Assembly (NCBI GenBank): GCA_964412455.1
Contig: CAYPOT010000009.1
Location: forward strand, 5,179-69,178
Source of the DNA: an uncultured Nitrospiraceae bacterium
GTDB taxonomy: Bacteria; Nitrospirota; UBA9217
Reading direction: 5' to 3'
DNA: 64,000 nucleotides
The first letter of the stretch is position 1. Each line of letters opens with the position of its first letter. The position numbers and the translations under genes are program-made. The notes below the pieces were generated by a model that saw only the letters and a program-made list of their open reading frames with translations, was not told the origin of the DNA and did no database searches. Below are positions 1,357 to 59,024 of this stretch, piece by piece.

Positions 1357-2517
1357 ATGATTAAAAGGATATCCATACTCGGCTCCACCGGCTCCATCGG
1401 CACTTCCACGCTTGCCGTGGTCGAACGATTCCCGGACCGATTCGCTGTCGTCGCGATCGCGGGAGGGAACAACAGCGAGCTGCTGGAGTCCCAGATCCGG
1501 AAGTTCAAACCCTCGATCGCCGCCATTGCGGGTGAGAAGGCCGCGGAAGAACTGCGGAAGCGGTGCGCGGACCTTCCGGTCACGATCCTCTCGGGCGTCG
1601 AGGGGACGATCCGGGTCGCCGCCGCGGAGAACGCGGACATCACGGTCTCTGCCATTGTCGGCACGGCCGGGCTGGTCCCGACGATGGCCGCGATCCAGGC
1701 AGGCAAGGACATCGCCCTGGCGAACAAAGAGGTGCTCGTCACCGCCGGCGAGCTGGTCATGGCCGAGTGCCGCAGCCGGAAAGTCAGGCTCTTTCCGGTG
1801 GACAGCGAGCACAGCGCCATATTCCAGTGCCTCCATTCCGGCGAACGGGGTGACGTCAGACGTCTCATCCTCACGGCGTCGGGCGGGCCTTTCCGGAACC
1901 ATACGAAGAAGGATCTCGCGAAGGCGACCCTGGCCCAGGCGCTGAAACATCCGAACTGGAACATGGGAAAAAAGATCACCATCGACTCGGCCACCCTGAT
2001 GAACAAAGGCCTCGAGGTGATCGAGGCGCACTGGCTTTTCGGCATGGGACCGGAACAGATCAACGTGCTGGTCCATCCGCAGAGCATTGTGCACTCGCTC
2101 GTCGAATACCAGGACGGCTCCGTCGTGGCCCAGCTCGGAATGCCCGACATGAAGGGGCCCATCGCGTACGCCCTTTCCTATCCGGACCGTCTTCCCGATG
2201 TTGCGCCGGGGCTCGACCTCGCGTCCATCGCAACGCTCACGTTCCAGGAGCCGGACCGCGACCTGTTCCCCTGCCTCGGCTTCGCCTATGACGCCCTCAG
2301 GGCAGGAGGCAGCATGCCGGCGGTGCTCTCCGCCGCGAATGAAGTTGCGGTCAGGTATTTTCTTGAAGAGAAGATCGGGTTCATGGACATCCCCCGCGTG
2401 CTCAAGGCGACCATGGACGCTCATACGCCGGTATCTTTCAAAAGCGTGGACGAGGCGCTCAAGGCGGACCTCTGGGCACGGCATGAAGCCGAGAAGATCA
2501 TTGCGGAGTGCGGGTAG
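1357..2517 (+). CDS. dxr: 1-deoxy-D-xylulose 5-phosphate reductoisomerase
   Basis: MIKRISILGSTGSIGTSTL N-terminus (NADPH-binding) and LANKEVLV motif. ATG at 1357 chosen over the upstream in-frame codon at 1300, which lies inside the REP-A repeat. Confidence 0.9.
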   Translation: MIKRISILGSTGSIGTSTLAVVERFPDRFAVVAIAGGNNSELLESQIRKFKPSIAAIAGEKAAEELRKRCADLPVTILSGVEGTIRVAAAENADITVSAIVGTAGLVPTMAAIQAGKDIALANKEVLVTAGELVMAECRSRKVRLFPVDSEHSAIFQCLHSGERGDVRRLILTASGGPFRNHTKKDLAKATLAQALKHPNWNMGKKITIDSATLMNKGLEVIEAHWLFGMGPEQINVLVHPQSIVHSLVEYQDGSVVAQLGMPDMKGPIAYALSYPDRLPDVAPGLDLASIATLTFQEPDRDLFPCLGFAYDALRAGGSMPAVLSAANEVAVRYFLEEKIGFMDIPRVLKATMDAHTPVSFKSVDEALKADLWARHEAEKIIAECG

Positions 2518-2518
2518 A

Positions 2519-2640
2519 CATGACCCTCACCCCTGCCCCTCTCCCCTGGAGGGAGAGGGAAAAAGGGAGAGGGGGCTTTTTCAACGCCGAGTGCGGAATG
2601 AAAGCCGTCATTCCCCCGAACGCGGGAATCCAGGGTTGTT
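2519..2640. repeat. Two REP-like hairpin repeats: R1 (CACCCCTGCCCCTCTCCCCTGGAGGGAGAGGG...) followed by R2 (GTCATTCCC-N-GGGAATCCAG)
   Basis: R1 is repeated almost exactly at 54903-54975, with variants at 23375-23410, 53213-53265, 57782-57815 and 58160-58192. R2 is repeated at 39673-39700, 39724-39752, 57107-57140, 57160-57195 and 63608-63640. Confidence 0.75.
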
Positions 2641-25276: not shown

Positions 25277-25487
25277 CCTATCCATTTCTCAGTCTGTTTA
25301 ATTAGGTTTTCGAAAGAATGCGTATATCCAAGTAATGACATGGCAAACCAAGCGAAAAAGACAGAGCACTCAGGATCGAAGAAAGGTTGCGGCTCATACT
25401 GGGGACGAAAGAAGGACGCAAAGACAGAAAGCAACCGCAAGCGCCGCGAAGACGGCAAGAGATTGATTCGAGAGACAGCGAGAGTAT

Positions 25488-25751
25488 ATGAACCGAAGAA
25501 ATAAATCCAGACCACAACGCACCGCTGATGCTCTTTGCCAGAAACACAAGGTCAGCGTCACGGGGAAATCCCATGACGTTGTACTCCATGCCGATACAGA
25601 AGACGGCGGCTTCTGGGTCGAGTGCCCCTCGCTTCCCGGCTGCGACTCGCAGGGCGACGCGGTAGAGGATGCGCTAAAGATGGTGAAGGACGCCATCAAG
25701 GGACATCTGGAGGTCGCGGCAGAGCGGAAGAAGAAGAGGGCGGCCGCGTAA
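25488..25751 (+). CDS. HicB-like (UPF0150) antitoxin-domain protein
   Basis: VVLHADTEDGGFWVECPSLPGCDSQGDAVEDALKMVKDAIKGHLE matches the HicB N-domain consensus. Its stop directly abuts the DUF3800 start (TAAATG). Confidence 0.6.
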   Translation: MNRRNKSRPQRTADALCQKHKVSVTGKSHDVVLHADTEDGGFWVECPSLPGCDSQGDAVEDALKMVKDAIKGHLEVAAERKKKRAAA

Positions 25752-26387: not shown

Positions 26388-26484
26388 AAACAACAAAGCC
26401 CCGTTCGCTAGTTTCGAGGCGCCCTGCGGTACCCCACGAACGAGGACTTACTTGTTGCTATTATGATAATGCAGGGGCGGAAGT

Positions 26485-26692
26485 ATGTCAAGGGTTTTGA
26501 GCAGTTTAATTCTCGGTCCGAGTGCAGCATAAAGGCTGGCGCGGCAGTCATGTGAAGCTGATGAAACCGGGTAATCCCGTCATTTTGTCGATCCCCCTGC
26601 ACAAGGGGAAACCGGTCAAGAAAGGCTTGCTGGTTGCTCAGGTCAAGAAGGCGGGGATGACGGTGGAGGAGTTCTTAAAATTGTACAAATAA
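26485..26692 (+). pseudogene. Degenerate HicA-like toxin (frameshifted, with internal stops)
   Basis: Frame 1 MSRVLSSLILGPSAA* (stop 26530). Frame 2 continues ...GWRGSHVKLMKPGNPVILSIPLHKGKPVKKGLLVAQVKKAGMTVEEFLKLYK*, the HicA GSH..KL...P.H.GK...GtL..I.KqAG signature, with TGA/TAA just upstream in that frame. Confidence 0.55.
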
Positions 26693-26734
26693 GCAATATG
26701 GTATCCAGTAAGATGTTGAAAATGAGTAGGCAAT

Positions 26735-27682
26735 TTGTTGATGACAGTTGGATTCTTACGAGCGAATGAAAATATGCCGATAGTAACTGATTCTAGACTG
26801 AACTCTGAAGCAGATATTAAATTCGAGACGTATCGCGGTTACCTCGATGCTGTCAGAAGGCACATATATCAAACATACGGATCTTGGAAGCACTTCGGAC
26901 GGACCTGCATTGATCAAACGCTACATATGCAAGGGATAGGTGTCTTTGATCAACCCTGGGTAGAACGGTTTCTCAAAATAGCATGGAATACTGAATTCAT
27001 TTTGTCTGACGGAGCCAAAGATGTAGAATTGGTCCGCATCAATAATCAGTGGTCACCGATTCAGGCGTATTATGCAATATATGCATGCGGGGAAGCCTTG
27101 GCCTATGTTCTTGACGGAAATAAAGCAGACGGCCATCAGAAAACTCTAACGAAGCTGACAGATTATTTTGAAAAAAACAGTCTCTCACCATGGAATCTAT
27201 CCTACGAGGGGCCACGAGGAAGGACTTGCCAGGACCACAAGCCTCATAATTTTTCTGCTGACATAAGAATACCGCATAACTTGCAGAGAAGCGACGTGAC
27301 ACCGCAGGAGTTGATTGCAAAGTGCCTTAAGGCAGAGCATGCCAACCGTGTTGATGATACATGGCAAAAAAGAAGGTGTCAGTTCAAATACAACTTCGAC
27401 CCGGGTCGGACCAGCCTATTGCACTTCATGTATAGACTCCGGATCAAATCCAACTACAAAGAGATTGATCTTTTCGTATCGCAGGCCCCGGCAGCTAAGA
27501 TCCTCAATTTCAACACATCTTTACAGTATATTTGTTTTTATACGCTTCTGTATATGGAGGTCGCGCTGGCCAGAAAATGTAAAAAGAGTTTTCTTCTTGC
27601 TCTGGGGGATAAGTATTTGACTGTGAATCCAAGAGCGCATAAATTAAAGCGTCGACTGGAATTCTATAATTCCCAGATATAA
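26735..27682 (+). CDS. Hypothetical protein (315 aa), accessory region
   Basis: No confident motif. Lower GC than the core. Immediately upstream of the nuclease-helicase gene. Confidence 0.4.
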   Translation: MLMTVGFLRANENMPIVTDSRLNSEADIKFETYRGYLDAVRRHIYQTYGSWKHFGRTCIDQTLHMQGIGVFDQPWVERFLKIAWNTEFILSDGAKDVELVRINNQWSPIQAYYAIYACGEALAYVLDGNKADGHQKTLTKLTDYFEKNSLSPWNLSYEGPRGRTCQDHKPHNFSADIRIPHNLQRSDVTPQELIAKCLKAEHANRVDDTWQKRRCQFKYNFDPGRTSLLHFMYRLRIKSNYKEIDLFVSQAPAAKILNFNTSLQYICFYTLLYMEVALARKCKKSFLLALGDKYLTVNPRAHKLKRRLEFYNSQI

Positions 27683-27722
27683 ATCTACCCGAGGTCAACG
27701 TCCTTCAAAGAGCACATTAACC

Positions 27723-30569: not shown

Positions 30570-30607
30570 TAGTAATATCAATAGACGAAAGGTTAAACAG
30601 ATACGAA

Positions 30608-31408
30608 ATGAAAATCGAAGGTAATGGGTTTTTGACCACTCTTTTGCCAGACATATCGCAGACGGTTCCCGGCGTCAATAAGGCTTTATTTTGCTTACTG
30701 CAAGATGTCATCAATTATGCAGAGAGCCTAAAAGAATCATTGCAGGTCGCCAAACAGGAAACAGATCAAGAAAAGCAGAAAATTATCGCGACAGTTACTT
30801 ACATTCGACTTTTAGAAGTCGTTGAAGCGGCGTTCATCCTTTCCGCTTATGGAATTAGAGAAGAGTTGCAGTCGCTATTTCGCATATTCTTAGACGCTTA
30901 TTTTGTGCATGCCAACTGCTGTAGCAGCCCAGAATTTATCCCTGCCTATATTCTTAGTGACGAACAGTCACGTCTTAAAATGCTTAATGTGGCGACGAAG
31001 TATGATAGCGAGATGTTCAAAGCGACAAAAGAATATGCAACAGCCGAATTGAAAAACCAACTTGAAAACAAGATACGCGAGGAAAAAATTGAAGCATTCA
31101 ACTCGTACCTCTATGCGAAAAATGTTAATTGCGAACAAATATACGATTCTCTATACAGGCTGATGAGCGCCTCAGTGCATACAACTCCCAGATGTTTAAG
31201 CAATTATATAGAAACTGACGAACATGGGGTCATATTGCAAGTCTTGCATGGCTCTAGGCCGGAAGACACCAACCACGCATTGTTTGATATGTCGTGGTTT
31301 TTCTTAAAGGCTATACGCGGGATCTGTGAATTGTTCCAGCTCCCCATGGGGACGTTAGATTGTTTTGACAAACGGATAAAGGAATATGAAACCGAAAGAA
31401 AAGATTGA
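30608..31408 (+). CDS. Hypothetical protein (266 aa), downstream of the nuclease-helicase
   Basis: 39-nt gap after the helicase stop; no recognisable motif. Confidence 0.4.
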   Translation: MKIEGNGFLTTLLPDISQTVPGVNKALFCLLQDVINYAESLKESLQVAKQETDQEKQKIIATVTYIRLLEVVEAAFILSAYGIREELQSLFRIFLDAYFVHANCCSSPEFIPAYILSDEQSRLKMLNVATKYDSEMFKATKEYATAELKNQLENKIREEKIEAFNSYLYAKNVNCEQIYDSLYRLMSASVHTTPRCLSNYIETDEHGVILQVLHGSRPEDTNHALFDMSWFFLKAIRGICELFQLPMGTLDCFDKRIKEYETERKD

Positions 31409-31578
31409 GAATGAGAGTCGAATATTGAATGTAATTTCGTTCATGGTCAGCCGAAAATTAGGCGCGAACGGATCCTGTATTTATTGATTCATGATGCGGA
31501 CTGAAAGCACTTATACTGAACTAAAAATAAGCGGCAGGCCATCTGGCCTGCCTTTGTCGTCTTCCGCATGCGCATCGC

Positions 31579-31827
31579 TCAATGCACCGAGCACGATATG
31601 CAAAGGTCGTAGGAGCGCACGAGCATCTGGGCGAGGAGCTCGATGTCCCGGTCCTTTTTCCCTTCCCGGGCATACTGCTCGGCAAGCGCCATCAGGTCGT
31701 GCTGAATATTGGCATGGTTCTGGCTCGTGGGGATCACGCAGTCGCTCTTGACGATCCCGCCTTCCTTGTCGAACTCGTAGCAATGATATAAGATCCCCCG
31801 GAGTATGCCTTGATTCTCGTATTGCAA
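31579..31827 (-). pseudogene. Displaced 3' fragment of the [NiFe] hydrogenase large-subunit gene (last ~75 codons plus terminator)
   Basis: Encodes ...GILYHCYEFDKEGGIVKSDCVIPTSQNHANIQHDLMALAEQYAREGKKDRDIELLAQMLVRSYDLCISCSVH, ~90% nt identical to hydA 32775-33000. The direct repeat spans ~31500-31800 vs ~32702-33003. Confidence 0.8.
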
Positions 31828-31943
31828 ATTTGCCGCTAATCGGCTAAATTTCTGCCATGTTCTGAATCTACGTGTGTCATTTCAACTCTGGAAACTGAAA
31901 TTATTGATAGATGCGTAAAAATGAAATGGGGTGAATCGACGTC

Positions 31944-32276
31944 ATGATCAACCGATCAATTCTGGTAGTCAGGGCGAAAGAGCCGTTCGTGCAATGGATC
32001 AACTCCCTTCCCGATCCTGCTGGAGTCTCCCGGAAGCAGGTCGATCTCGATAATACAGCCTATCTTCTGCCGGAATACGCGTATGACGAAGAAAAAGAGG
32101 AGCTTCTCGCTCAGTTCTTCGATCTGATCTTTCAGGAACAATTGAGCGGCTGGTGGACTGATGAGAGTGGCTGGCCGCAGAAGCGGGACATTGCCATGTT
32201 CAACAAGTGGTTCGAAGTAGATTTTCATTCGGCAGTGCTCGATCTTGTTGATACGCCGCTGGAAGAGGACGAATAG
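31944..32276 (+). CDS. Hypothetical acidic protein (110 aa) within the hydA-3' duplicated insert
   Basis: No recognised motif. Paired with the downstream wHTH gene. Confidence 0.4.
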   Translation: MINRSILVVRAKEPFVQWINSLPDPAGVSRKQVDLDNTAYLLPEYAYDEEKEELLAQFFDLIFQEQLSGWWTDESGWPQKRDIAMFNKWFEVDFHSAVLDLVDTPLEEDE

Positions 32277-34148: not shown

Positions 34149-34213
34149 GTAGGGGCAACCCTATGTGGTTGCCCTCATTCGGCGTTCGGGCGGCCACGCA
34201 GGGCCGCCCCTAC
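34149..34213. repeat. REP-A repeat, copy 3, overlapping the 3' end of hydD
   Basis: gtaggggcaaccctatgtggttgccctcattcggcgttcgggcggccacgcagggccgcccctac. The last ~13 codons of hydD (...VGAALRGRPNAE*) are encoded by the repeat. Confidence 0.8.
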
Positions 34214-39659: not shown

Positions 39660-39760
39660 CAGTAAAAAAAGTCGTCATACCCGCGAAAGCGGGTATCCAG
39701 GGAGCAAGAATATGCTAGAGAATACTGGATTCCCGTTTACACGGGAATGACGGAATATAC
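39660..39760. repeat. Pair of R2 REP hairpins in opposite orientation (BIME-like)
   Basis: gtcatacccgcgaaagcgggtatccag and ctggattcccgtttacacgggaatgac. Confidence 0.7.
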
Positions 39761-49489: not shown

Positions 49490-51174
49490 GACGCCTGCTC
49501 GGCGAGATACTCGTTGAGTCAGGACTTTCCCCCGAACGGCTCAATAAGACCCTTGAACTCCAGAAAAAACGGGGTGGCCGCATCGGCACGCTCCTCATGC
49601 GGCTGAACTTCGCCACCGAGGCCGAGGTGCTCACGGCCCTGGGCGCCCAGCTCGGCCTTCCCTTCCAGCCAACGATCGGCGAGCTCGACCGCGAGCTTGC
49701 TCTCAAACTTCCCATCACCTACGCCAAGAAAGCCGTTGTCATTCCCCTTCGCCGGGAGGACGGGACCGTCCTCGCCGCGACGGCGGAGCCGCTCCTCCTG
49801 TCCACGGTGGACGACCTTGCCGTGCTGTTCGCTTCGCCTGTCGAACTTTGCCTCGCTCCGTCCGATGCGATCCTTGACAATCTGAACCGGCTGCACAGCG
49901 AGGGGCTGAACAAGGCCGAGGACACGGCGCAGGAAATGGAGGAGGAAGACCTGTCGTTCCTGGCCGCGGAGCTCGAAGAGCCTACGGACCTTCTTGAGGC
50001 GACCGACGACGCGCCGATCATCCGGCTCGTGAACTCGCTCCTGTCCCAGGCCATTCGCGAGCGGGCCAGTGATATTCACATCGAACCGTTCGAGAAGGAG
50101 GTCGTGGCGCGGTTCCGCATCGACGGCATCCTGTACAACATCCTGACCATCCAGAAGCGCTTCCAGGTCAGCATCGCCTCGCGCGTCAAGATCATGTCGG
50201 GGCTGAATATCGCCGAGAAACGGCTGCCCCAGGACGGCGGCATGCGGATCAAGATCGGCGGCAAGGACGTGGACATCCGCGTTTCCATCGTGCCCACGGC
50301 CTTCGGCGAGCGCATCGTGCTGCGCCTCCTGTATCGGGAAAGCGCGCTCCTGCCGCTGGACCAGATCGGTTTCACCGGCGAGACCCTCCGGCGGTTCGAA
50401 GAGTTCATCACCAAGCCGCACGGCATCATCCTCGTCACCGGTCCGACCGGCAGCGGCAAGACCACGACGCTCTATGGCGCGCTCTCCAAGATCAACTCGC
50501 CGGACAAGAACATCATCACCATTGAAGATCCCGTGGAATACCAGCTCAAGGGCATCGGCCAGATCCAGGTGAACGCCAAGATCCAGCTGACCTTCGCCGC
50601 CGGCCTCCGGTCCGTGCTGCGCCAGGACCCGGACGTGATCCTCGTGGGCGAGATACGGGACTCCGAGACCGCCGAGATCGCGATCCAGGCGGCGCTCACC
50701 GGTCACCTCGTCTTCTCCACGCTCCACACGAACGACGCGGCCGGGTCCATAACGCGCCTCCTGGACATGAAGGTCGAACCGTTCCTTATTTCCTCATCGG
50801 TCATGGCCATTCTGGCCCAGCGGCTGGTGCGCGTGCTCTGTACGCAATGCCGCGAGATCTATGAGCTGACGCCGCTGGAGATGAAGGAGCTCGAGGTCGT
50901 CCCGACCGGCCAGAACCCCATGGCGTACCGCGCCAAGGGATGTCCGGTGTGCTTTCAGACCGGGTATCTGGGACGGTCCGCCATATATGAACTGCTGGAG
51001 ATCGACGACGAGGTCCGCCAGCTCATCATGAAGAACGCCGACGCGTCGACGATCAAGGCCCTGGCGGTGAAGAAGGGGATGACGACCCTCCGCCAGGACG
51101 GCGCCGACAAGGTGCTGAAAGGCATCACGTCGGTGGACGAGGTCGTGCGGGTGACGCAGAAAGAAACGCAATAA
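49486..51174 (+). CDS. gspE: Type II secretion system ATPase
   Basis: Walker A GPTGSGKTTTLY, Asp/His boxes and a tetracysteine zinc motif. Overlaps the gspD stop. Confidence 0.9.
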   Translation: MRRLLGEILVESGLSPERLNKTLELQKKRGGRIGTLLMRLNFATEAEVLTALGAQLGLPFQPTIGELDRELALKLPITYAKKAVVIPLRREDGTVLAATAEPLLLSTVDDLAVLFASPVELCLAPSDAILDNLNRLHSEGLNKAEDTAQEMEEEDLSFLAAELEEPTDLLEATDDAPIIRLVNSLLSQAIRERASDIHIEPFEKEVVARFRIDGILYNILTIQKRFQVSIASRVKIMSGLNIAEKRLPQDGGMRIKIGGKDVDIRVSIVPTAFGERIVLRLLYRESALLPLDQIGFTGETLRRFEEFITKPHGIILVTGPTGSGKTTTLYGALSKINSPDKNIITIEDPVEYQLKGIGQIQVNAKIQLTFAAGLRSVLRQDPDVILVGEIRDSETAEIAIQAALTGHLVFSTLHTNDAAGSITRLLDMKVEPFLISSSVMAILAQRLVRVLCTQCREIYELTPLEMKELEVVPTGQNPMAYRAKGCPVCFQTGYLGRSAIYELLEIDDEVRQLIMKNADASTIKALAVKKGMTTLRQDGADKVLKGITSVDEVVRVTQKETQ

Positions 51175-51179
51175 TAAGC

Positions 51180-51300
51180 GCCAAATGACAAGAATCAAAT
51201 CACAAATAAATTTCAATTTTCAAACGCCAAATTCCAACCGTTTGGGATATTGATATTTGAATTTTGGAGCTTATTTGAGATTTGCTATTTGTAATTTGGA
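51180..51300. repeat. AT-rich CAAAT/ATTTG hairpin repeat (sister of 4044-4160)
   Basis: caaatgacaagaatcaaatcacaaataaatttc ... atttgaattttggagcttatttgagatttgctatttgtaatttgg. Confidence 0.6.
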
Positions 51301-51314
51301 GCTTGTACCAATCC

Positions 51315-52532
51315 ATGCCCATCTACGAATACAAAGGCGTCAACGCAATCGGCAAGAGCATCTCCGGCGTCCTGGACGGCGAGAGCCTGAAGACCGTGAA
51401 GGCGAAGCTCAGGAAGGACGGCATCGTCGTTCTTGAGGTCCGTGAGGGCAGCGCGGTGCGGGCGGCGCGCTCACGGGAGTTCCACTTCGGCGGGGGAAGG
51501 GTCAAGGCCGGTGACCTCGCCAATGCCACGCGCCAGCTTGCCACGCTCCTTTCGGCCGGCCTCCCGCTCATGGAGGCGCTGAACGTGCTTGTGGACCAGG
51601 AGGAGGGCCAGGCGCTCAAAGGAGCGCTCGCGTCGGTGCGCGATTCGGTGCGCGGCGGATCCTCCCTCGCCGACGCCCTCAAGACGAACGCAAAGGTCTT
51701 CTCCCCGCTCTATGGGAACATGGTGACGGCCGGCGAGGCGAGCGGGACCCTCGAGATCACGCTGGACCGGCTCGCCGATTTTCTCGAGGAGCAGGTCCGT
51801 TTCCAGGGCAGGCTCACGGCGGCGCTGGCGTATCCCGCGCTCATGACCGTCATCGGCATCGGCGTTCTGTTCTTCCTGTTCAGCTTTGTCCTGCCCCGGG
51901 TCGTCGGGATGTTCGAGGATATGCGGCAGCAGCTCCCGTTCATTACCGTGGTCCTTCTGGCGGTGGTGCGGGTCCTGTCGGGATTCTGGTGGCTGATCCT
52001 GCTTACGGTGGGTGGCGCGGGTTGGTACGTGCAGCGGTATTTCAGCACGGCCGCGGGCAAGGTGAACCTGGACGGTTGGCTGCTACGCATGCCGGTGTTC
52101 GGGACGCTCATCCGGATGATCGCCGTGTCGCGGTTCACCCGGACCCTGGGGACGCTGCTGCAGAGCGGGGTGCCGACGCTCACGGCGCTGGACATCGTGC
52201 AGAACGTCATCGGGAACACGGTGCTTGCCGAGGCGGTCCGGAAGGCGCGCGAGAACGTGCGCGAGGGCGAATCCATCGCCGATCCCCTGCGGCGGAGCCG
52301 CCTCTTCCCGCCCGTGGTGGTCCAGATGATCTCGGTCGGTGAAAAGAGCGGCGAACTGGAAAAAATGCTCCTTAAAGTGTCGGATTCCTTCGACCGGACC
52401 GTGGAGTCGCGCATCGCCGCACTGATGTCCCTCGTGGAACCGGCGATCATCCTGGTGATGGGGCTCATTATCGGATTCATCGTCATCGCCATCCTGCTGC
52501 CGATCCTGCAGATGAGCTCGGCGGTGAGATAA
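51315..52532 (+). CDS. gspF: Type II secretion system inner-membrane platform protein
   Basis: MPIYEYKGVNAIGKSISG N-terminus, two GspF repeats. ATG 51315 preferred over 51282. Confidence 0.85.
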   Translation: MPIYEYKGVNAIGKSISGVLDGESLKTVKAKLRKDGIVVLEVREGSAVRAARSREFHFGGGRVKAGDLANATRQLATLLSAGLPLMEALNVLVDQEEGQALKGALASVRDSVRGGSSLADALKTNAKVFSPLYGNMVTAGEASGTLEITLDRLADFLEEQVRFQGRLTAALAYPALMTVIGIGVLFFLFSFVLPRVVGMFEDMRQQLPFITVVLLAVVRVLSGFWWLILLTVGGAGWYVQRYFSTAAGKVNLDGWLLRMPVFGTLIRMIAVSRFTRTLGTLLQSGVPTLTALDIVQNVIGNTVLAEAVRKARENVREGESIADPLRRSRLFPPVVVQMISVGEKSGELEKMLLKVSDSFDRTVESRIAALMSLVEPAIILVMGLIIGFIVIAILLPILQMSSAVR

Positions 52533-52585
52533 GTCGATTGCGGATTGCGGAGTGCGGAACGAGAACAGCCGATCCTGCGGTAAAC

Positions 52586-52644
52586 CGTAGGGGCAACCCC
52601 ATGTGGTTGCCCCCGGGCGGGCGGCCACGCAGGACCGCCCCTAC
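52586..52644. repeat. REP-A repeat, copy 4
   Basis: gtaggggcaaccccatgtggttgcccccgggcgggcggccacgcaggaccgcccctac between gspF and gspG, preceded by GATTGCG heptamer repeats. Confidence 0.8.
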
Positions 52645-52700
52645 GAATAGGGTTTCACCCGTGTCCATCTGTCGTTACTAAGGTTGTCAGGAGGTTCTTC

Positions 52701-53135
52701 ATGAAAAACCAGAAAGGTTTCACCCTCATCGAGATCATGGTCGTGGTGATCATTCTCGGGCTCCTGGCGGGTCTCGTCCTGCCGAAGATCCTCGGCCGCG
52801 AGGAAGAGGCGCGTGTCAGCTCTGCCAGGCTGCAGATCAAGTCCCTGGAGAACGCCCTCGACGGGTACAAGCTGGACAATGGTTTCTATCCGACGACGGA
52901 CCAGGGGCTCGAGGCGCTCATCAAAAAACCGGAGGCCGGCCGAATTCCGAACAAGTGGCGCGAGGGAGGATACCTGAAGCCGGCGCGCATTCCCAAGGAC
53001 CCCTGGGGCATTGACTTCCACTACTATTCCCCCGGCAACGAGAACCGTGAGTACGAGATCATTTCGTACGGTCCCGACGGCGAGCCGGGCGGCGAGGGCA
53101 AGAGCGCCGATGTTGAGAGCTGGAAGATAGAATAA
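52701..53135 (+). CDS. gspG: Type II secretion major pseudopilin
   Basis: MKNQKG|FTLIEIMVVVIILGLLAGLV prepilin motif. Confidence 0.9.
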   Translation: MKNQKGFTLIEIMVVVIILGLLAGLVLPKILGREEEARVSSARLQIKSLENALDGYKLDNGFYPTTDQGLEALIKKPEAGRIPNKWREGGYLKPARIPKDPWGIDFHYYSPGNENREYEIISYGPDGEPGGEGKSADVESWKIE

Positions 53136-53139
53136 AGAA

Positions 53140-53757
53140 ATGGGGATTGCGGATGGTTCGACGGGGCTCACCATCATGAGTGTGTCGACTGATTGCGGAT
53201 TGCGGAATGCCCCCTCACCCTGCCCTCTCCCCTCAGGGGAGAGGATTAAGGTGAGGGGTGGTGTTTCTTCCGGCTTCACGCTCATCGAGCTGGCGATGGT
53301 GATCGTGGTGCTGGGTGTCATGATCTCGCTCGTGATCCCGACCCTGGGCGAGATGACCGGGGCGAACCTGAAACGGAGCGCCCGGCACCTGACCGGCATG
53401 ATCCGTTTCCTGCGGGACGAGGCCGAGGCGAAAAAAACCGTGTACCGGCTCCGGTTCGATGTCACCGGCGGACACTACTGGGCCGAGACCCTGACCGTGA
53501 CCTCTGACCGGACCGCCGAGTTCAAACGGCTGTCGTCGGCCATTTCCACAGAAGGGAGCCTTTCGGGCAATACCACGTTCAAGGACGTCAAAGCCGGGAG
53601 CCATCCAGACGACCCGTATATCCTGTTCACCCCCGACGGCTGGGTGGAGAAGACCTTCATCCACCTGCGGGACGGCAATGGGAAGGATTTCACACTCCTC
53701 GTCCAGCCGCTCACCGGAGAAACCGAGCTCCGCGAGGGAGAGGTGGAGGAGAGATGA
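53140..53757 (+). CDS. gspH: Minor pseudopilin GspH-like (start uncertain: ATG 53140 or GTG 53251)
   Basis: ...GVSSG|FTLIELAMVIVVLGV prepilin motif. Sequence upstream of GTG 53251 is built from R1/GATTGCG repeats. Confidence 0.65.
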   Translation: MGIADGSTGLTIMSVSTDCGLRNAPSPCPLPSGERIKVRGGVSSGFTLIELAMVIVVLGVMISLVIPTLGEMTGANLKRSARHLTGMIRFLRDEAEAKKTVYRLRFDVTGGHYWAETLTVTSDRTAEFKRLSSAISTEGSLSGNTTFKDVKAGSHPDDPYILFTPDGWVEKTFIHLRDGNGKDFTLLVQPLTGETELREGEVEER

Positions 53758-54185
53758 GGCATTGCGGATTGCGAATTGCGGATTGCGAATTGCAAAAGAC
53801 GGATTTAAATCCACAATCCGCAATTCGCAATCCGCAATTAAATGGTTTTACCCTCCTTGAAGTGATGCTGGCGGTGGCGATCTTGTCCCTCGTGGTCGTT
53901 TCGCTGATGGGACTGAGCAGCCGAAGCACGCAGGATGTGATGCTTGCCGAACACATCACGACGGCGACGCTTCTGGCGAAGCGGGTCATGACCGAGACGC
54001 TCTTGATCCGCATCCAGCTTCCCCGGGAGGATGAGGGCGAGTTCGAAGAGGAGGAGTTCGGGGACTATGCCTGGAAGATGATCGTCGCTCCCACACCGGT
54101 GCCGCTTATCATGGAGGTGCGGGTGGCGGTCCTCTGGAAGGAAGGGGAGCGGGAAGAGAAAGTTGAGCTGGTGAGCTATGAATAG
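53754..54185 (+). CDS. gspI: Minor pseudopilin GspI-like with a 31-aa repeat-encoded leader
   Basis: ATG overlaps the gspH stop (ATGA). Leader MRHCGLRIADCELQKTDLNPQSAIRNPQLNG|FTLLEVMLAVAIL. Confidence 0.65.
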   Translation: MRHCGLRIADCELQKTDLNPQSAIRNPQLNGFTLLEVMLAVAILSLVVVSLMGLSSRSTQDVMLAEHITTATLLAKRVMTETLLIRIQLPREDEGEFEEEEFGDYAWKMIVAPTPVPLIMEVRVAVLWKEGEREEKVELVSYE

Positions 54186-54879
54186 GACCAGTTCGGAGTT
54201 CGGAGTTCGGAGTGCGGAATGGAACAACAGGTGCTCTGGCGATCATGATCATACTCCGCAATCCGCAATCCGCAATCCGCACTCGAGTGGCTTCACGCTT
54301 CTCGAAGTGCTCCTGGCGCTGTCGATCCTGGCGGTCATCGCGACCACGATCTACAGCAGCTTTTCGACCGCTGGAAGGAATGTGGAGAGCGCCGAAGAAG
54401 TCCGTGACGGGACGGACCGGGCGCGGACCCTGCTTGCCCGGCTGACAAACGACATTGCGAACGCTTACGTCGGAATGAGCGGGACTTTCCTTTACGGCAA
54501 GAAGGTCGAGACGGAGGAGGACAAACTGCGTTTCGACAGCATCTATCTCACGACGCTGACGAACTGGCGGAAGCCGGACTCGAAAGAGATGGAGCTCTGG
54601 GAAGTCGGATATTTCTTCCAGGAGAGGCCCGACGGCAGCGGCCGCGTTCTGATGCGCAAGGAAAAGCGGGAGCTATCCAGCGACGTTCCTCCCCGCGAGG
54701 GCGGCATTGACTACGAGTTAACGGATACTGTTGCGGGTCTTCAACTTCGATATTCCTCTGACGGCGCGAAGTGGACCGATGAGTGGACCCAGGGTGGTCT
54801 GCCCAAGGCAGTGGACATCGTCCTGACCCTTGATGACGGCAGGGTCTACGCGACGAAGGTCGACATCGGGCATCAATAA
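54178..54879 (+). CDS. gspJ: Minor pseudopilin GspJ-like with a 38-aa repeat-encoded leader
   Basis: ATG overlaps the gspI 3' end. Leader ...HTPQSAIRNPHSSG|FTLLEVLLALSIL. Confidence 0.65.
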   Translation: MNRTSSEFGVRSAEWNNRCSGDHDHTPQSAIRNPHSSGFTLLEVLLALSILAVIATTIYSSFSTAGRNVESAEEVRDGTDRARTLLARLTNDIANAYVGMSGTFLYGKKVETEEDKLRFDSIYLTTLTNWRKPDSKEMELWEVGYFFQERPDGSGRVLMRKEKRELSSDVPPREGGIDYELTDTVAGLQLRYSSDGAKWTDEWTQGGLPKAVDIVLTLDDGRVYATKVDIGHQ

Positions 54880-54902
54880 AAAGAAAGTGCGGAGTGCGCG
54901 TA

Positions 54903-54975
54903 GACATGACCCTCACCCCTGCCCCTCTCCCCTGGAGGGAGAGGGAAAAAGGGAGAGGGGGGCTTTTTCAATGCG
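54903..54975. repeat. R1 REP-like hairpin repeat (near-identical to 2519-2590)
   Basis: gacatgaccctcacccctgcccctctcccctggagggagagggaaaaagggagaggggggctttttcaa. Confidence 0.8.
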
Positions 54976-55777
54976 GAGTGCGGAAGGACGAAATATAAGC
55001 AATAACAACCGCGGGGTAGCGCTTCTGATCGCGCTGCTGGTCACGACGCTGCTCATGGCGCTCATTGTCGAGTTTGCCTACGGGACGCGGGTGAGCCTCC
55101 GCGCGGCGGTGAATTTCCGGGACAGCCAGCGGGCCTACTTTCTTGCGCGGTCCGGCGTGAACTTCGCGGGTAAGATCCTCGCCGAGAACCTGAAAAATGG
55201 AAAGCTCCAGGACAACCTGGAACAACGCGAGTGGCAGGTGGTGCCTATCGTGAGCGAAGGCGACACCGAGCTCCGGGTGCGCTGGGAGGACGAGGCAGGA
55301 AAGATCAATATTGCGCCCCCGTTCTACAATAACAACCAGGATTGGTTCGGGGAACTATTGTTCAATACGGTCGTCAGTCAGGAGGTCGTCGATAAGATCA
55401 AGGACGCAACAGGAAACAAGGTCTATCTTCTCGGCCAGCTTCATCAGGTCATGAGTGACGAGGAATACGGCAAAGTGCAGGATTTCCTGACAACGTACTC
55501 TGCCGGAGCGATCAACGTCAATACCGCAACGGAAACGGTCCTCAGGAGCGTGTTGAAAGGCAAGATAGCAACTCCGGACTTTATCATGATGAAGCGGAAA
55601 GATAAACCTATCCCCGATCTGGGCGGCATGGACATAAATAACGAGAGGTACTCGACGACAAGCAACACGTTCTTTGTCCAGTCCTACGCGACAGTCGGCG
55701 GGTATACGAAGAAGGCGGAAGCCATGATAACAAGGCACAGCGGGGGATTCACCGTTCAGTACTGGAAAATATTATGA
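54971..55777 (+). CDS. gspK: Type II secretion minor pseudopilin GspK
   Basis: MRSAEGRNISNNNRGVALLIALLVTTLLMALIVEF. ATG 54971 preferred over ORF-track start 54830, which overlaps gspJ and runs through the R1 repeat. Confidence 0.7.
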   Translation: MRSAEGRNISNNNRGVALLIALLVTTLLMALIVEFAYGTRVSLRAAVNFRDSQRAYFLARSGVNFAGKILAENLKNGKLQDNLEQREWQVVPIVSEGDTELRVRWEDEAGKINIAPPFYNNNQDWFGELLFNTVVSQEVVDKIKDATGNKVYLLGQLHQVMSDEEYGKVQDFLTTYSAGAINVNTATETVLRSVLKGKIATPDFIMMKRKDKPIPDLGGMDINNERYSTTSNTFFVQSYATVGGYTKKAEAMITRHSGGFTVQYWKIL

Positions 55778-57099
55778 AAGTTGTTGGCTTGAACATAGAC
55801 ACGGGGCGGCTTGCGGTCTCCGTGGTGCAGCGAAAGTTCGGCAAGTCCGAGCTGATGGATTCGTTCATCCGCTCCTTCGTCACCGACGCCGAACTGGTTG
55901 AGGTCCTCCGGGAGCAGTCTGCGGTCTGGGCAGGGGCGAAGATCGTCCTTGCCATCCCCGGCCGGTTCTTCAGCCAGCGCGTGCTCACGCTCCCTTTTGC
56001 CGACAGGAAACGCGTCGAGAAGGCCCTGCCTTTCGAGGTCGAGGACATCATACCTTTTGATCTCGAAGACGTCGTGCTTGATCATCTCGTGCTGGGGAGC
56101 GCGGGGGTCGGGAAGGAATCGGAAACGCAGGTGCTCTGCATGATGCTGCCGAAGGCGGTCCTGCGTCAACACCTGGACCTGCTGGCGGGCGCGGGGATCG
56201 ACCCCCAGGCCGTTGTGCCGTCCTATGCCGGGCTCTTTTCCATCGCGAACATGATGCCTATAGAGTCCGGCACGCTCCTGCTCTGCGGTTCCGACGCCTG
56301 CCTCAGGTCCCCGGTCGCGCTGAAGGCCCTCCGGAGCTTCTCCGGCAGCCAGTCCACCGGTGGTCTCCGTCATGTTCTGCAGGCGCTCGTGACCGAGCAT
56401 CGGGAGCCAGTGGAGAAGGCGGCGCTGCTGATCGACAATGAGGCTGCGCTGGCGGTCCTTGTCGAGGCCGGTGTTGCGGCGGAGCCGGTGACGCCGGAGA
56501 TCAACGGGAAGAAGGCGCAGGACCCGGTCAGCCTGGGGATCGCGCTCCTGGACGAGTTGAACTTCCGCAGGGGCGAGTTTGCGTATCGTGCGGCGGACGA
56601 AGGTACACGCCGCAAGAGGCGCATGCTCATCATCGCCGGGGCGGTCGCTGCCGTCCTGTTCACCGTGAATGTCGCGGTGAAACTGTCCATCGTCCGTTCC
56701 GGCTATGGAAAGCTCGACGCCGAGATCAAGGAGCTCTATCGTCAGACCTTTCCCGACGGCAGGCCGGCTGACGATCCAGTGAGGCAGATGCAGGACAAAA
56801 TGAACGAGGCGAAGAAGCGTTTCGGGGTTTTGGGCTCCGGGACATCGGCGCTGGACGTGATGAAGACGGTCACCGACGGCATCCCGAAAGAGGTCCGGGT
56901 CAATTTTACCGAATTCGTCCTGGAGAGCGAACGGCTGAAGCTCCAGGGAGAGGCGTCCTCGTTCGAGGCCGTGGACAAGATCAAGGCCGAGCTCCAGAAA
57001 TCGCCGCTCTTTGCCGATGTCGCGGTGCAGGATACCCGCATGGGTGTTGATAACAAGGTGAAGTTCCGGTTCGAGATGAAGTTGAAGCAGGGGATGTGA
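55774..57099 (+). CDS. gspL: Type II secretion system protein L
   Basis: 441 aa, PilM/actin-like N-domain, central TM segment (MLIIAGAVAAVLFTVNVAV). Overlaps the gspK stop. Confidence 0.7.
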   Translation: MKVVGLNIDTGRLAVSVVQRKFGKSELMDSFIRSFVTDAELVEVLREQSAVWAGAKIVLAIPGRFFSQRVLTLPFADRKRVEKALPFEVEDIIPFDLEDVVLDHLVLGSAGVGKESETQVLCMMLPKAVLRQHLDLLAGAGIDPQAVVPSYAGLFSIANMMPIESGTLLLCGSDACLRSPVALKALRSFSGSQSTGGLRHVLQALVTEHREPVEKAALLIDNEAALAVLVEAGVAAEPVTPEINGKKAQDPVSLGIALLDELNFRRGEFAYRAADEGTRRKRRMLIIAGAVAAVLFTVNVAVKLSIVRSGYGKLDAEIKELYRQTFPDGRPADDPVRQMQDKMNEAKKRFGVLGSGTSALDVMKTVTDGIPKEVRVNFTEFVLESERLKLQGEASSFEAVDKIKAELQKSPLFADVAVQDTRMGVDNKVKFRFEMKLKQGM

Positions 57100-57106
57100 A
57101 CTCTTT

Positions 57107-57195
57107 CGTCATTCCAGTGGAAACGGGAATCCAGTCTTTGCATGCTGTTCCTTGGGTCCTGGGTACCCGCTGTCGCGGGTATGACGACATATAGT
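57107..57195. repeat. Pair of R2 REP hairpins
   Basis: gtcattccagtggaaacgggaatccag and ggtacccgctgtcgcgggtatgacgac. Confidence 0.7.
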
Positions 57196-57259
57196 GAGTA
57201 CATTGCAGTTCGAAAGAAGGCTGACCGTGTTCATCCGTGGTTGCCCTTAGAGGTTTTAT

Positions 57260-57763
57260 TTGAAGCTGGAATCGAAGGATAAAAAGACACTCATCATCGG
57301 CGGATCGATCGCGGCGGCGATCCTGCTGTACGCGTTCGTCCTGTCTCCGTTCATGGAGGACCTTGGCCGGAAGCGCGACCTCATTCCGAAAAAGCAGCGC
57401 GACCTCGAGGACATGAAGAAGCTCCGCGACGAGTACGGGGAGATCCAGAAACAGCTGCAGCTGGTCCAGGACGCGGCTGCCAAGCGCGGCCCGCTCCTGA
57501 CGGAGATCGAGAACATCACGAAGCGAGCTAACCTGAACAGCAAGATCGTATCCCTCAAACCCCAGCCAGGGGCCCAGACCGACGGTTTCAAGGAGAGCAT
57601 CGTCGAGATCAAGCTCGACAACATCACGCTCTACGACGTGGTGAACTATGTCTACCTCCTGGAGAAAGCGACAGTCCGCGTCCGGAAGCTCTCGTTCAAA
57701 CCCCGGTATGATAACCCGAAGATCCTGAACGCCACGCTGCTCGTATCAAGCGCCGGTTTATGA
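57260..57763 (+). CDS. gspM: Type II secretion system protein M
   Basis: TTG start; N-terminal TM (LIIGGSIAAAILLYAFVL) then a GspM-like periplasmic domain. Confidence 0.6.
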   Translation: MKLESKDKKTLIIGGSIAAAILLYAFVLSPFMEDLGRKRDLIPKKQRDLEDMKKLRDEYGEIQKQLQLVQDAAAKRGPLLTEIENITKRANLNSKIVSLKPQPGAQTDGFKESIVEIKLDNITLYDVVNYVYLLEKATVRVRKLSFKPRYDNPKILNATLLVSSAGL

Positions 57764-57823
57764 TGGGTCAGTATTTTTTCACCTCCCCCTTGAGGGGGGA
57801 GGGTAGGGTGAGGGTGAAGAGAT

Positions 57824-58204
57824 TTGAAGAATAATCTTTTAGTACTCGCCAAAGACCTCAGGAAAAACTCAACTGACGCAGAACGACTATTGTGGAAACA
57901 TCTTCGAGGCAAGCAATTTGACAGGATGAAATTCAGAAGACAACAGCCGATTGGCAGGTATATTGTTGATTTCGTCTGTTTCGAAAGGAAAATAGTCGTT
58001 GAAGTCGATGGTGGTCAGCATACAGATGCGAAAGATCAGGATGCAATCCGGGATTCCTGGTTGCATGGTCAAGGGTACACGGTGTTTCGCTTCTGGAACC
58101 ATGATGTTTTGCAAAATATCGAAGGTGCGTTAATCAAAATCCTGAATCACCCTCCCCAAACCCCTCCCCTCAAGGGAGGGGATAATTATTATCATGATCG
58201 ATAG
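57824..58204 (+). CDS. DUF559 (Vsr-like endonuclease fold) protein inserted in the T2SS operon
   Basis: LAKDLRKNSTDAERLLWKHLRGKQF...VDFVCFERKIVVEVDGGQH...RFWNHDV is the DUF559 signature. Flanked by R1-variant hairpins at 57782-57815 and 58160-58192. Confidence 0.65.
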   Translation: MKNNLLVLAKDLRKNSTDAERLLWKHLRGKQFDRMKFRRQQPIGRYIVDFVCFERKIVVEVDGGQHTDAKDQDAIRDSWLHGQGYTVFRFWNHDVLQNIEGALIKILNHPPQTPPLKGGDNYYHDR

Positions 58205-59024
58205 AACAACGCTCATTCGCAGGCTTTCCTTTGCCCTCTACTTCGTCATTGCCTTTCTGACGTTCCTTGTATTCCTGTTCCCTTTTGAGCGGATCAAAAC
58301 CAGGCTGGAATCAGAGGTCCGGTCGCGAACTCCGCTGGAACTGAGCATTACGCGCATTTCGCCGCTGTTTATAAACCGGTTCGTGCTCTCGGAGGTGGTT
58401 GTGGCCGACCGAACCGGCAGGGTGCTGTTCGAGAGCCCGTCGGTCCGCACGCATGTGTCGCTTTTCAGATTCCTCCGGGGCCTCCTGACCGTGAACATCA
58501 AGGCGAAGGCCTACGGCGGGGCCGTGTCCCTGAGAACGGAGCAGGGCGCGAAACGCCAGTACATCGCCCTGGACGCTGAAGGGCTGGACATCGGCTCGTA
58601 TACGCTCTTAAAGAACCTCGGCATCACGTTGTCGGGAAGGCTGGGCGGATCGTATGAGGCGACCGGAGATGCGGGCAAAGGACGTCTGGTGATCAAGAAC
58701 CTGGCGAGCCGCGAGCTCAAGATCATGGGGTTCCCGGTGCCGGACCTGGATTTCGATCAGGCGTGGCTCGAAGGCGAGGTCAAGGGGGACCGTTTCACCA
58801 TCCGGAAGCTGGAGCTCGACGGAAAAGAACTGAAGGTCCGGATCACGGGTGACCTGGTGATGCGGGAGCGGGGGACCCTCAATCTGGTGGTGAAGTTAAA
58901 GCCGTCGGAGCGTCTCGCAACGGAACAGGCAGGGCTTCTTTCATTCCTCAAGAACAGGGACGCCGAGGGGTTCTACCAGTTCACGCTCGGGGGAACGGTG
59001 ACTGAACCGATGCCGCGGCTGTGA
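58194..59024 (+). CDS. gspN: Type II secretion system protein N
   Basis: N-terminal TM (LSFALYFVIAFLTFLVFLF) and GspN-like periplasmic domain at the end of the gsp operon. Confidence 0.6.
   Translation: MIDRTTLIRRLSFALYFVIAFLTFLVFLFPFERIKTRLESEVRSRTPLELSITRISPLFINRFVLSEVVVADRTGRVLFESPSVRTHVSLFRFLRGLLTVNIKAKAYGGAVSLRTEQGAKRQYIALDAEGLDIGSYTLLKNLGITLSGRLGGSYEATGDAGKGRLVIKNLASRELKIMGFPVPDLDFDQAWLEGEVKGDRFTIRKLELDGKELKVRITGDLVMRERGTLNLVVKLKPSERLATEQAGLLSFLKNRDAEGFYQFTLGGTVTEPMPRL

Follow-up and report, generated by a model that had tools for sequence, protein, structure and literature searches.

The minor pseudopilin genes gspI and gspJ of a type II secretion operon in an uncultured Nitrospirota bacterium raise the question of where their translation begins. 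Both lie within the stretch of DNA analysed here (64 kb of contig CAYPOT010000009.1, hereafter the window). In each, inverted arrays of 7-nt repeats lie between the ATG that overlaps the stop codon of the preceding gene and the codons for the prepilin cleavage motif G|FTLLE (the bar marking the predicted cut). Either the arrays are translated, giving leader peptides of exceptional length, or translation starts internally and the arrays are hairpins in an untranslated RNA that regulate expression of the minor pilins. Both possibilities were raised in the initial annotation of the window. On the comparative sequence evidence presented below the gspI and gspJ repeats are probably genuine repeat-encoded leaders. 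They are most likely passengers, tolerated since the prepilin peptidase discards the leader. The features concerned are as follows.

53754..53846, forward strand: gspI leader segment, 31 codons, MRHCGLRIADCELQKTDLNPQSAIRNPQLNG|F, with GGAGGAGAG just 5′ of the ATG.
53761..53791, forward strand: left heptamer arm of the gspH/gspI hairpin, made of ATTGCGG/ATTGCGA units.
53808..53838, forward strand: right, inverted heptamer arm of the gspH/gspI hairpin, made of AATCCGC units and ending two codons before the glycine of the cleavage site.
53847..54185, forward strand: mature GspI, beginning FTLLEVMLAVAIL.
54178..54291, forward strand: gspJ leader segment, 38 codons, MNRTSSEFGVRSAEWNNRCSGDHDHTPQSAIRNPHSSG|F.
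54190..54218, forward strand: left array of the gspJ leader, 4.1 copies of AGTTCGG (three of AGTTCGG, then AGTGCGG).
54253..54284, forward strand: right, inverted array of the gspJ leader, 3.9 copies of TCCGCAA, with the tandem repeat at 54255-54281.
54292..54879, forward strand: mature GspJ.

The gspI gene (53754-54185) starts at an ATG (53754) that overlaps the gspH TGA at 53755-53757 (i.e. ATGA). The gspJ gene (54178-54879) starts at an ATG within ATGAATAG that overlaps the gspI TAG at 54183-54185. The glycine codons of G|FTLLE are at 53844 in gspI and 54289 in gspJ, preceded by leaders of 31 and 38 amino acids that have the sequence PQSAIRNP in common. Both leaders are encoded by palindromic repeat blocks, with inverted arrays at 53761-53838 and 54190-54284. 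The gspH/gspI arms are 31 nt each, 94% complementary and separated by a 16-nt loop. Arrays in the window are short (2.9-4.7 copies). Each feature described in the initial annotation was found at the coordinates given there. The ATG at 54178 is the sole in-frame ATG, GTG or TTG available to gspJ. The other in-frame starts of gspI are TTG codons inside the repeats, which would still give leaders of 26 and 19 amino acids. If the long leaders are real, the peptides CGLRIADCELQK and SAEWNNR are expected from their translation.

Both proteins have the class III prepilin core, i.e. Gly or Ala at -1, Phe or Met at +1, Glu at +5 and a stretch of about 20 hydrophobic residues (PF07963/TIGR02532); the sequences are G|FTLLEVMLAVAILSLVVVSLMGL in GspI and G|FTLLEVLLALSILAVIATTIY in GspJ. 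The N-methylation motif does not begin at the N-terminus but at residue 30 of GspI and 35 of GspJ, with N_methyl and TIGR02532 matches at 30-51 and 35-59. Leaders of type II secretion pseudopilins are typically shorter than about 10 amino acids, so those of GspI and GspJ, at 31 and 38, lie well outside this range; both are hydrophilic, without a hydrophobic stretch. The identity of the genes is clear. The operon occupies 46.6-59 kb on the forward strand, where Pfam and NCBIfam assign gspC, D, E, F, G, H, I, J, K, L and M in that order. GspH, GspI and GspJ belong to their expected families (T2SSI and T2SSJ in Pfam; gspH, gspI, gspJ and GspK in NCBIfam, several under the curated cut-offs), and GspJ homologues bear the GspJ name at their sources. 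The window is from a chromosomal metagenome contig. Contigs with the same sequence, among them ENA ERZ27247837 (68.9 kb) and others from different samples, all match this region at 99.9-100% identity. The nearest taxonomically labelled relative is a genome of the Nitrospirota class UBA9217, and other GspJ homologues carry the source label Nitrospirota.

Three independent lines of sequence evidence (homologous proteins, the DNA of related loci and microevolution) support translation of the gspI and gspJ leaders over an internal start. We surveyed the 120 best GspJ homologues, which are 54-100% identical. The G|F motif is present in 118 of them, following leaders of 9-60 amino acids with modes at 29-32 and 36-38. 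The leaders share an architecture, M[SN]x..[AS][DE][CF]G[LVF]R.., then about 10 variable amino acids, then P[QHKN]S[AE][ILF]R[NT]P.S.G|F. In most homologues the left array encodes IADCGLRIAD, SAECGVRSAE, SSEFGVRSSE or ISDFGFRISD, and the right array PQSAIRNPQS, PHSALRTPHS, PNSELRTPNS or PKSEIRNPKS, followed by x-G|F. A minority have a short leader running from the same conserved start, e.g. MNKVGAERG|F.

The DNA was compared at 17 related loci, ten found by tblastn scans independent of gene calls and the rest via called GspJ proteins. Scans of two large collections gave few close relatives (3 and about 8), and most loci were fetched protein by protein. A frame was scored as open if there was no stop codon between the stop of the previous gene and the glycine codon. 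Over 49 gspH, gspI and gspJ junctions the gene frame is open in 46 (gspH 14/15, gspI 16/17, gspJ 16/17). The other two frames are open in only 19/49 (gspH 6/15, gspI 5/17, gspJ 8/17) and 22/49 (gspH 5/15, gspI 6/17, gspJ 11/17). The three junctions that fail have another in-frame start just past the upstream stop. The length of the junction is in phase with the overlapping ATG in 14/17 loci for gspI (2 mod 3) and 15/17 for gspJ (1 mod 3), and the Shine-Dalgarno sequence GUGGAGGA is located 5′ of the gspI ATG in 13/17. A canonical start that would give a leader of 16 amino acids or fewer is absent from 11/17 gspI and 13/17 gspJ genes. In orthologues ending ...PHSALRTPHSKG|F the last 12 codons lack even a near-cognate start.

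Comparison of pseudopilin N-termini across related genomes had been proposed in the initial annotation, and long in-frame leaders prevail in it. The argument made there that the overlapping starts mark real long open reading frames (ORFs) is strengthened by the conservation in relatives of the overlapping ATG, the gspI Shine-Dalgarno sequence and the open frame. Its suggestion of long class III-type leaders made of repeats is likewise supported for gspI and gspJ by conservation of frame, phase and start codon. The leaders are indeed long, but they are not a peculiarity of this genome; they are a trait of the clade and recur in other phyla.

The third line comes from clusters of GspJ proteins at 90% identity or above. 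Within these clusters the leaders differ greatly, and the frame is kept. In one cluster leaders of 36, 29 and 22 amino acids occur, so that the step is 7 amino acids, i.e. three heptamers. In another the spacer SKSTDIGLT is constant and the right arm has changed from PHCALRTPHS to PQSAIRNPQS, a concerted change in every unit. Other clusters have nested in-frame insertions of about +14 and +23 amino acids, derived from other palindromic repeats. Such in-frame microevolution points to purifying selection on the reading frame, and untranslated RNA would not be expected to show these patterns.

We considered a function of the leader at the peptide level and rejected it; unrelated leaders occur within 90% GspJ clusters, and a 7-nt periodicity is a signature of DNA, not of protein. 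A 201-amino-acid truncated GspJ call (P0138, L177 974-1100) proved to be the choice of the gene caller, the long frame from the overlapping ATG being intact. Some annotation pipelines start the gspJ genes of P0128, P0138, P0158 and P0179 at a methionine inside the hydrophobic helix; of these, P0138 was the one compared with its DNA. There is a practical consequence, in that some pipelines lose the cleavage motif and others annotate free-standing repeats as hypothetical proteins.

The repeat unit is well suited to translation. Three heptamers comprise 21 nt and thus 7 codons, GATTGCG reading as DCGLRIA and its complement as RNPQSAI. Since GANTNCG units are stop-free in all six frames, the arrays are translatable. 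In the window GANTNCGGANTNCG occurs 9 times (0.33 expected), and 8 of the 9 are within 52536-54284; related arrays are present in the gspF/G, G/H and J/K junctions. Period-7 arrays have a density of 10.3/kb in the 584-nt pseudopilin junction zone and 0.37/kb in the window's remaining 10.8 kb of non-coding DNA, a post hoc comparison, as the window had been flagged for its heptamers.

We tested whether the repeat is specific to the secretion system, and this was excluded by a peptide search. A synthetic peptide of both translated arms gave 387 protein matches (E-values up to 10), from many taxa. The best 120 of these are 38-90 amino acids long and have no Pfam domains, and the few that are named at their sources span several taxa. 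Many matches have the layout array, spacer, inverted array (IADCGLR.../...PQSAIRN), and they are found on hundreds of unrelated contigs. The heptamer repeats are therefore a widespread class of intergenic element that is not confined to this secretion system. They have the inverted arms, the multiple dispersed copies and the frame-preserving position inside an ORF that characterize miniature inverted-repeat transposable elements. By eye we saw no clear target-site duplication around 53761-53838 or 54190-54284, and a transposase gene was not found in the window.

Further intergenic arrays in the window are at 23277, 34103 and 39568. The heptamers of the gspI leader are replaced in relatives by an 8-mer array from the CACGGAGG family (MTDTGTRGHGDAGKHFNG|F). 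Given this and the variety of the elements, the leader site evidently accepts whichever member of the element class is present. We note that two larger elements of the same design as the leader hairpins occur between metabolic genes of the window, with cores of about 100-130 nt. In one, at 19871-20017 in the interval from a CNNM/CorC gene to mdh, an AT-rich core is bounded by inverted arrays of CACGGAGG (three copies) and CTCCGTGC (three copies). Similarly, CGCAGAGGA (two copies) and GTCCTCTGC (two copies) flank an AT-rich core at 21807-21975, between two fumarase subunit genes. Another palindromic intergenic repeat, of the GTCATTCCCGCGAAAGCGGGAATCCAG type, lies beside heptamer-containing elements at 2606-2640, 39685-39745 and 57108-57190, and one copy of it is located in the gspL/gspM spacer.

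The remaining pseudopilin genes of the operon differ in their relation to the repeats. Their features, with those of the adjoining junctions, are listed here.

52536..52558, forward strand: heptamer array, 3.3 copies of GATTGCG, in the gspF/gspG spacer just past the gspF stop.
52701..53135, forward strand: gspG, the major pseudopilin, with a canonical 6-amino-acid leader MKNQKG|F and a Shine-Dalgarno match of -11 kcal/mol.
53140..53757, forward strand: gspH ORF, with a likely start at GTG 53251 (VRGGVSSG|F, 8 amino acids) and a frame open back to ATG 53140 (45-amino-acid leader).
53143..53259, forward strand: gspG/gspH repeat block, with heptamers at 53143-53151 and 53191-53210 followed by a nested palindrome CCCCTCACC...CCTCTCCCC/GGGGAGAGG...GGTGAGGGG.
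54888..54985, forward strand: 98-bp composite element at the gspJ/gspK junction, consisting of GTGCGGAGTGCG, the CCCTCACCC/CCTCTCCCC palindrome and then ATGCGGAGTGCGGAA.
2502..2598, forward strand: second copy of the 98-bp element, 96% identical, between dxr and rseP.

The gspG leader is free of repeats in the window and so provides an internal control. In relatives it comprises 6-8 amino acids in 14/15 close loci, and 13 in locus L174. Repeat-derived sequence 5′ of gspH GTG 53251, described in the initial annotation, is present as the heptamers and palindrome listed above. The CCCTCACCC/CCTCTCCCC palindrome, at 53211-53259, supplies both the GTG and its Shine-Dalgarno sequence, which is stronger than that of ATG 53140 (-8.3 vs -3.3 kcal/mol). 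Probably gspH of the window starts at GTG 53251 with a normal 8-amino-acid leader. In several relatives the gspH leader is long and heptamer-encoded, with no alternative start, e.g. MRNQFRIADFRFRIRGKHQNPQSAIHFPQSKG|F in locus L008. The start of gspK (ATG 54971, MRSAE...) is made of the last heptamers of the 98-bp composite element, and the second copy of that element at 2502-2598 indicates that it is a dispersed element of the genome. A palindrome with GTAG at its head (CGTAGGGGCAACCCCATGTGGTTGCCCC...), resembling repetitive extragenic palindromic (REP) sequences, occurs at 52586-52645 and 34149-34175, each time 3′ of heptamer arrays. The same combination of heptamer array and GTAG palindrome is also found 5′ of gspG in relatives (loci L086 and L090).

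The association of arrays with pseudopilin starts extends beyond this clade. In more distant secretion-system loci 308 pseudopilin junctions have a median gap of 26 nt; 78 of them reach at least 60 nt, of which many, in Geobacter, Verrucomicrobiota, Desulfobacterota and Nitrospira, hold heptamer arrays whose sequences are unrelated. Over 1.05 Mb of secretion-system loci, 78 of 125 period-7 arrays lie within 150 nt 5′ of a prepilin G|F motif, a zone that makes up 7.8% of the sequence, and 47 lie elsewhere. In these zones 78/88 arrays have period 7, a period that is also dominant among non-coding arrays elsewhere. Among 24 prepilin 5′ zones that contain period-7 arrays, drawn from 19 distant loci, 21 are open in the gene frame (10 and 13 in the control frames). 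A start is found 5′ of the arrays in 19 of the zones, and between the array and the glycine in only 4. This enrichment raises the question of whether the arrays tune or switch the expression of the secretion system. We note that some Nitrospira and Desulfobacteraceae loci have three or four different heptamer arrays in series per pseudopilin junction (CAATGGT, CACTCGT, CACGTGT), with in-frame leaders of 50-59 amino acids (L053 2333-2482, L055 2252-2380, L063 2000-3500).

How might such leaders have arisen? We propose that gspI and gspJ are translated from the overlapping ATGs straight through the inverted heptamer arrays, which would generate hydrophilic, cytoplasmic leaders of 31 and 38 residues, and that these are removed by the prepilin peptidase at the predicted G|FTLLE site. 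The arrays belong to a widespread class of hairpin-forming elements, built of short tandem repeats in the order array, spacer, inverted array, that reside in intergenic DNA of this genome and of many other bacteria. Since the genes overlap and no spacer is available, the segment from the start to the cleavage site, the one part of the ORF not constrained in sequence, would be the only place where such elements can persist. The discarded segment would thus be a natural safe harbour for repeats in an operon without spacers. Repeats that land or expand there could persist provided that they are stop-free and in frame. The arrays may turn over rapidly by slippage or conversion, with selection passing in-frame outcomes such as the gain or loss of three units (21 nt). 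We infer that the leaders are translated and cleaved, that they are neutral, and that arrays have spread from one paralogous 5′ end to another inside the operon. With both arms intact, the hairpin, 7 nt after the gspI ATG, would hinder independent binding of the 30S subunit and so couple translation to that of the upstream gene. A plausible side effect is coupling-dependent translation that would keep the minor pseudopilins low relative to GspG.

Several observations weigh against this explanation. Passive tolerance leaves unexplained the approximately 28-fold higher density of period-7 arrays in the junction zone of the window compared with its other non-coding DNA, and the position of 78 of the 125 arrays within 150 nt 5′ of G|F. 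It likewise fails to account for the retention of a long leader in about 90% of lineages, in the face of the usual deletion bias. Arrays spreading from one paralogous 5′ end to the next in adjacent pseudopilin genes, or an advantage of some kind, may be part of the reason for the enrichment. In the open-frame test only spacers and flanks are informative, because the arrays are stop-free in every frame, and the loci are phylogenetically related, so that the counts are not independent events. For gspH of the window, initiation at GTG 53251 with a short leader is no less likely than a long leader. Lastly, a gene for the prepilin peptidase (peptidase A24, GspO/PilD), the enzyme that removes class III leaders and methylates the new N-terminus, was not found in the 64-kb window.

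Alternatively, the hairpins may be selected RNA elements that throttle independent initiation, so that translation has to be coupled to that of the upstream gene and the tip pseudopilins are made in equal amounts, low compared with GspG; being translated would then be a mere constraint on the elements. The gspH/gspI junction folds with -57 kcal/mol and z = -7.2 (z = -8.0 in the survey of junctions), in a very stable stem starting 7 nt after the gspI ATG, and the gspI/gspJ junction has z = -3.0. The arrays are strongly concentrated at pseudopilin junctions, GspG as the abundant subunit is encoded by a gene with no repeats in its leader, and the function of type II secretion depends on subunit stoichiometry (PMC9765573). 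However, comparison across loci lends no support to a conserved structure. While z is below -2 in 20/49 junctions, 29/49 have no significant structure, and the median z is -0.8 for gspI and -1.3 for gspJ. In an RNAalifold analysis of 10 gspJ leaders the covariation term was unfavourable (+1.38), the pairs resting on an invariant CGGA/UCCG core. Variable heptamer positions are compensated in few sequences, at 3/18 predicted pairs, and broken or gapped cells occur at 16/18. Among GspJ homologues the two arms are often of non-complementary unit types, and some orthologues have one arm only or a leader of 9-10 amino acids. Scans for terminators and promoters gave nothing at the repeats and no terminator-like feature, and an Rfam scan of 51000-58500 at a permissive threshold gave only generic microRNA-like hairpin matches far below the gathering scores. 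Because few junctions fold, arms are often non-complementary, covariation is unfavourable and there is no terminator or Rfam match, the structure would seem to be a by-product of the inverted arrangement. We rejected a conserved RNA structure as unsupported by the covariation and by the small fraction of folded junctions, and the earlier proposal that the hairpins regulate minor-pilin expression finds no support in structural conservation. We regard selected hairpins as possible but doubtful. The pattern of arrays could alternatively be that of contingency loci, in which a 7-nt unit gained or lost would put the gene out of frame or back into it, so that a minor pseudopilin, and hence secretion as a whole, is turned off and on. 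Phage infection can depend on a functional type II secretion system (PMC9765573), which provides a rationale for such a switch; the benefit could be escape from phages or the shedding of a costly machine. The unit length is not a multiple of three, copy number in a discarded leader cannot alter the mature protein, array content turns over rapidly between strains at least 90% identical, and the arrays of prepilin 5′ zones are overwhelmingly of period 7. But period 7 also dominates non-coding arrays elsewhere, and no out-of-frame allele occurs in the 49 junctions, 46 being in frame and the three exceptions having their own downstream start. Moreover the sole suspected truncated allele (the 201-amino-acid call) is in frame, and through this region the contigs recovered for the same strain (two from ENA, one of 68.9 kb and one short, and two from Logan) show full or 99.9% identity. 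As assemblies are consensus sequences, this search covers consensus alleles, and rare OFF variants could escape it. The lack of out-of-frame alleles in this search and the shortness of the arrays speak against phase variation, and we consider it improbable. If it were correct, adaptation and not tolerance would account for the recurrence of period-7 arrays at prepilin 5′ ends in different phyla.

The least probable explanation, and a very unlikely one, is that translation starts near the cleavage site, the arrays being untranslated intercistronic RNA and the long ORFs artefacts of annotation. The GTG of gspH in the window, with its 8-amino-acid leader and superior Shine-Dalgarno sequence, would be an example of just this, and there alone is the original suggestion of an internal start downstream of 5′ untranslated hairpins to be preferred; for gspI and gspJ it lacks support. 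The in-frame TTG codons of gspI offer shorter leaders of 26 and 19 amino acids, open frames are partly automatic because the arrays cannot hold stops, and some pipelines do call shorter proteins. Those calls, however, place the N-terminus within the hydrophobic helix, so that the cleavage motif would be missing. In gspJ there is no second in-frame start at all, and most of the related gspI and gspJ genes have none that would yield a leader of 16 residues or fewer. Junction length preserves the phase of the overlapping ATG in 14/17 and 15/17 loci, the gene frame is free of stops about twice as often as the control frames (46/49 against 19/49 and 22/49), and leaders of relatives differ by whole codons. 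Two further ideas were discarded. The gspI Shine-Dalgarno sequence could pair with CCUCC in the FTLLE codons, but this is not conserved, locus L177 having CCCTGCTCGAG. All arrays of the window contain GGA, as in binding sites of the CsrA type, but arrays in the same position elsewhere lack it (CAATGGT, CACTCGT, AATGACG, CCCTTGC).

Some other features of the window may be noted. The gspE/gspF spacer contains a 32-bp AT-rich tandem repeat (2 copies, 84% matches) at 51241-51304, reaching the start region of gspF, for which the start is 51315 in the metagenome annotation and TTG 51282 in the ORF list. An ORF for a DUF559 protein (Vsr-like endonuclease; 57824-58204, forward strand, TTG start, Pfam E = 7.6e-42) lies after gspM and before the following secretion-system gene, and has flanking CCCTCCCC/GGGGAGGG palindromes at 57782-57815 and 58150-58182. 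The metagenome gene call missed it, calling instead a 59-amino-acid ORF on the opposite strand; in relatives a PDDEXK_3 nuclease gene is located between gspL and gspM. A second GspE/PilB-type ATPase gene (T2SSE and MshEN domains) is at 16654-18498, 30 kb from the secretion operon, and we noticed no adjoining pilin genes. Two islands of lower GC content are present. That at about 6000-14000, between ispG and proS, is 36-42% GC (vs about 59%) and encodes an HD-domain protein, an N6/N4 DNA methylase, a carbamoyltransferase-ASCH fusion and two proteins without a Pfam match; it has the appearance of an acquired island for DNA modification or defence. That at about 23480-32000 (45-51% GC) encodes an HTH-SocA/Panacea antitoxin-like protein, DUF3800, an Mrr-ResIII-helicase fusion (948 amino acids) and DUF5677, and is probably a defence island.

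It is instructive to compare the leaders with known systems. Class III leaders, which remain in the cytoplasm and are cleaved off, are hydrophilic and vary in length (PMC10191384). In the type IVb pilins and the type IVa pilins of Streptococcus sanguinis the leader extends far beyond the usual 5-10 residues, ends in glycine before F-x-x-x-E and a hydrophobic helix, and is taken off by the prepilin peptidase (PMC10191384), an arrangement also predicted for GspI and GspJ. With type IVb pilins, whose leaders are about 15-30 amino acids, the resemblance is in this one trait only, shared by the leaders of 31 and 38 amino acids found here; the genes do not belong to the type IVb pilin clade or gene cluster but to a canonical type II secretion operon. 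Unlike the long-leader pilins, these are minor pseudopilins of type II secretion, which normally have short leaders (as the median junction of 26 nt indicates), and their leaders are translated DNA repeats that are hypervariable between near-identical strains. The class III leader seems to be almost free of constraint in sequence and length, with 9-60 residues on otherwise near-identical proteins, which bears on recognition by the prepilin peptidase.

Translated palindromes also have a precedent. Rickettsia palindromic elements are dispersed palindromic repeats that lie in frame inside genes and add a peptide segment (PMC10969869). They are about 150 bp in length, fall into defined families and encode a conserved peptide that is retained in the mature protein; the comparison is one of description and no homology is claimed. 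By contrast, the elements here are inverted pairs of 7-nt arrays with a variable spacer, encoding a non-conserved peptide in a segment that would be cleaved off. They add a case spanning several phyla of repeats translated inside essential genes. Short heptanucleotide arrays, the closest published parallel to these repeats, have themselves been described, as TAACTGA arrays in Beggiatoaceae and Cyanobacteria (PMC4679880) and as the GGACCGG and MTYCTGA elements of Geobacter (PMC2700814). These arrays and the cyanobacterial short tandemly repeated repetitive (STRR) sequences are similar to those studied here in having 2-6 copies of 7-nt units, in their abundance in or near intergenic DNA, in lying often beside start codons and in having no assigned function. 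Those arrays are mostly direct repeats in untranslated DNA just 5′ of the start, and TAACTGA contains stops, while the GANTNCG arrays are inverted pairs that lie 3′ of the start and in frame, and so fall outside that class. As with REP sequences and bacterial interspersed mosaic elements, there are dispersed GC-rich hairpins between the genes of operons, and the window has several such families. REP sequences, however, are extragenic, whereas the present element is inside an ORF, and no gene for a REP-associated tyrosine transposase was found in the window.

In Neisseria the opa genes have CTCTT pentamers in the region coding for the signal peptide, in long, phase-variable arrays. The likeness is that the unit is not a multiple of three, lies in the part of the ORF for a cleaved signal and is translated when in frame. 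The arrays here are instead short inverted pairs without detected out-of-frame alleles, so that of the hallmarks of a contingency locus they have the unit in the 5′ coding region and, among the consensus alleles compared, show no OFF-allele polymorphism. Full-text literature searches for the repeat unit sequences and Nitrospirota pseudopilins gave nothing relevant, nor was a description found of a long class III leader built from translated palindromic repeats. Long class III leaders and palindromic repeats translated in frame are each already known, and what appears to be new here is their combination.

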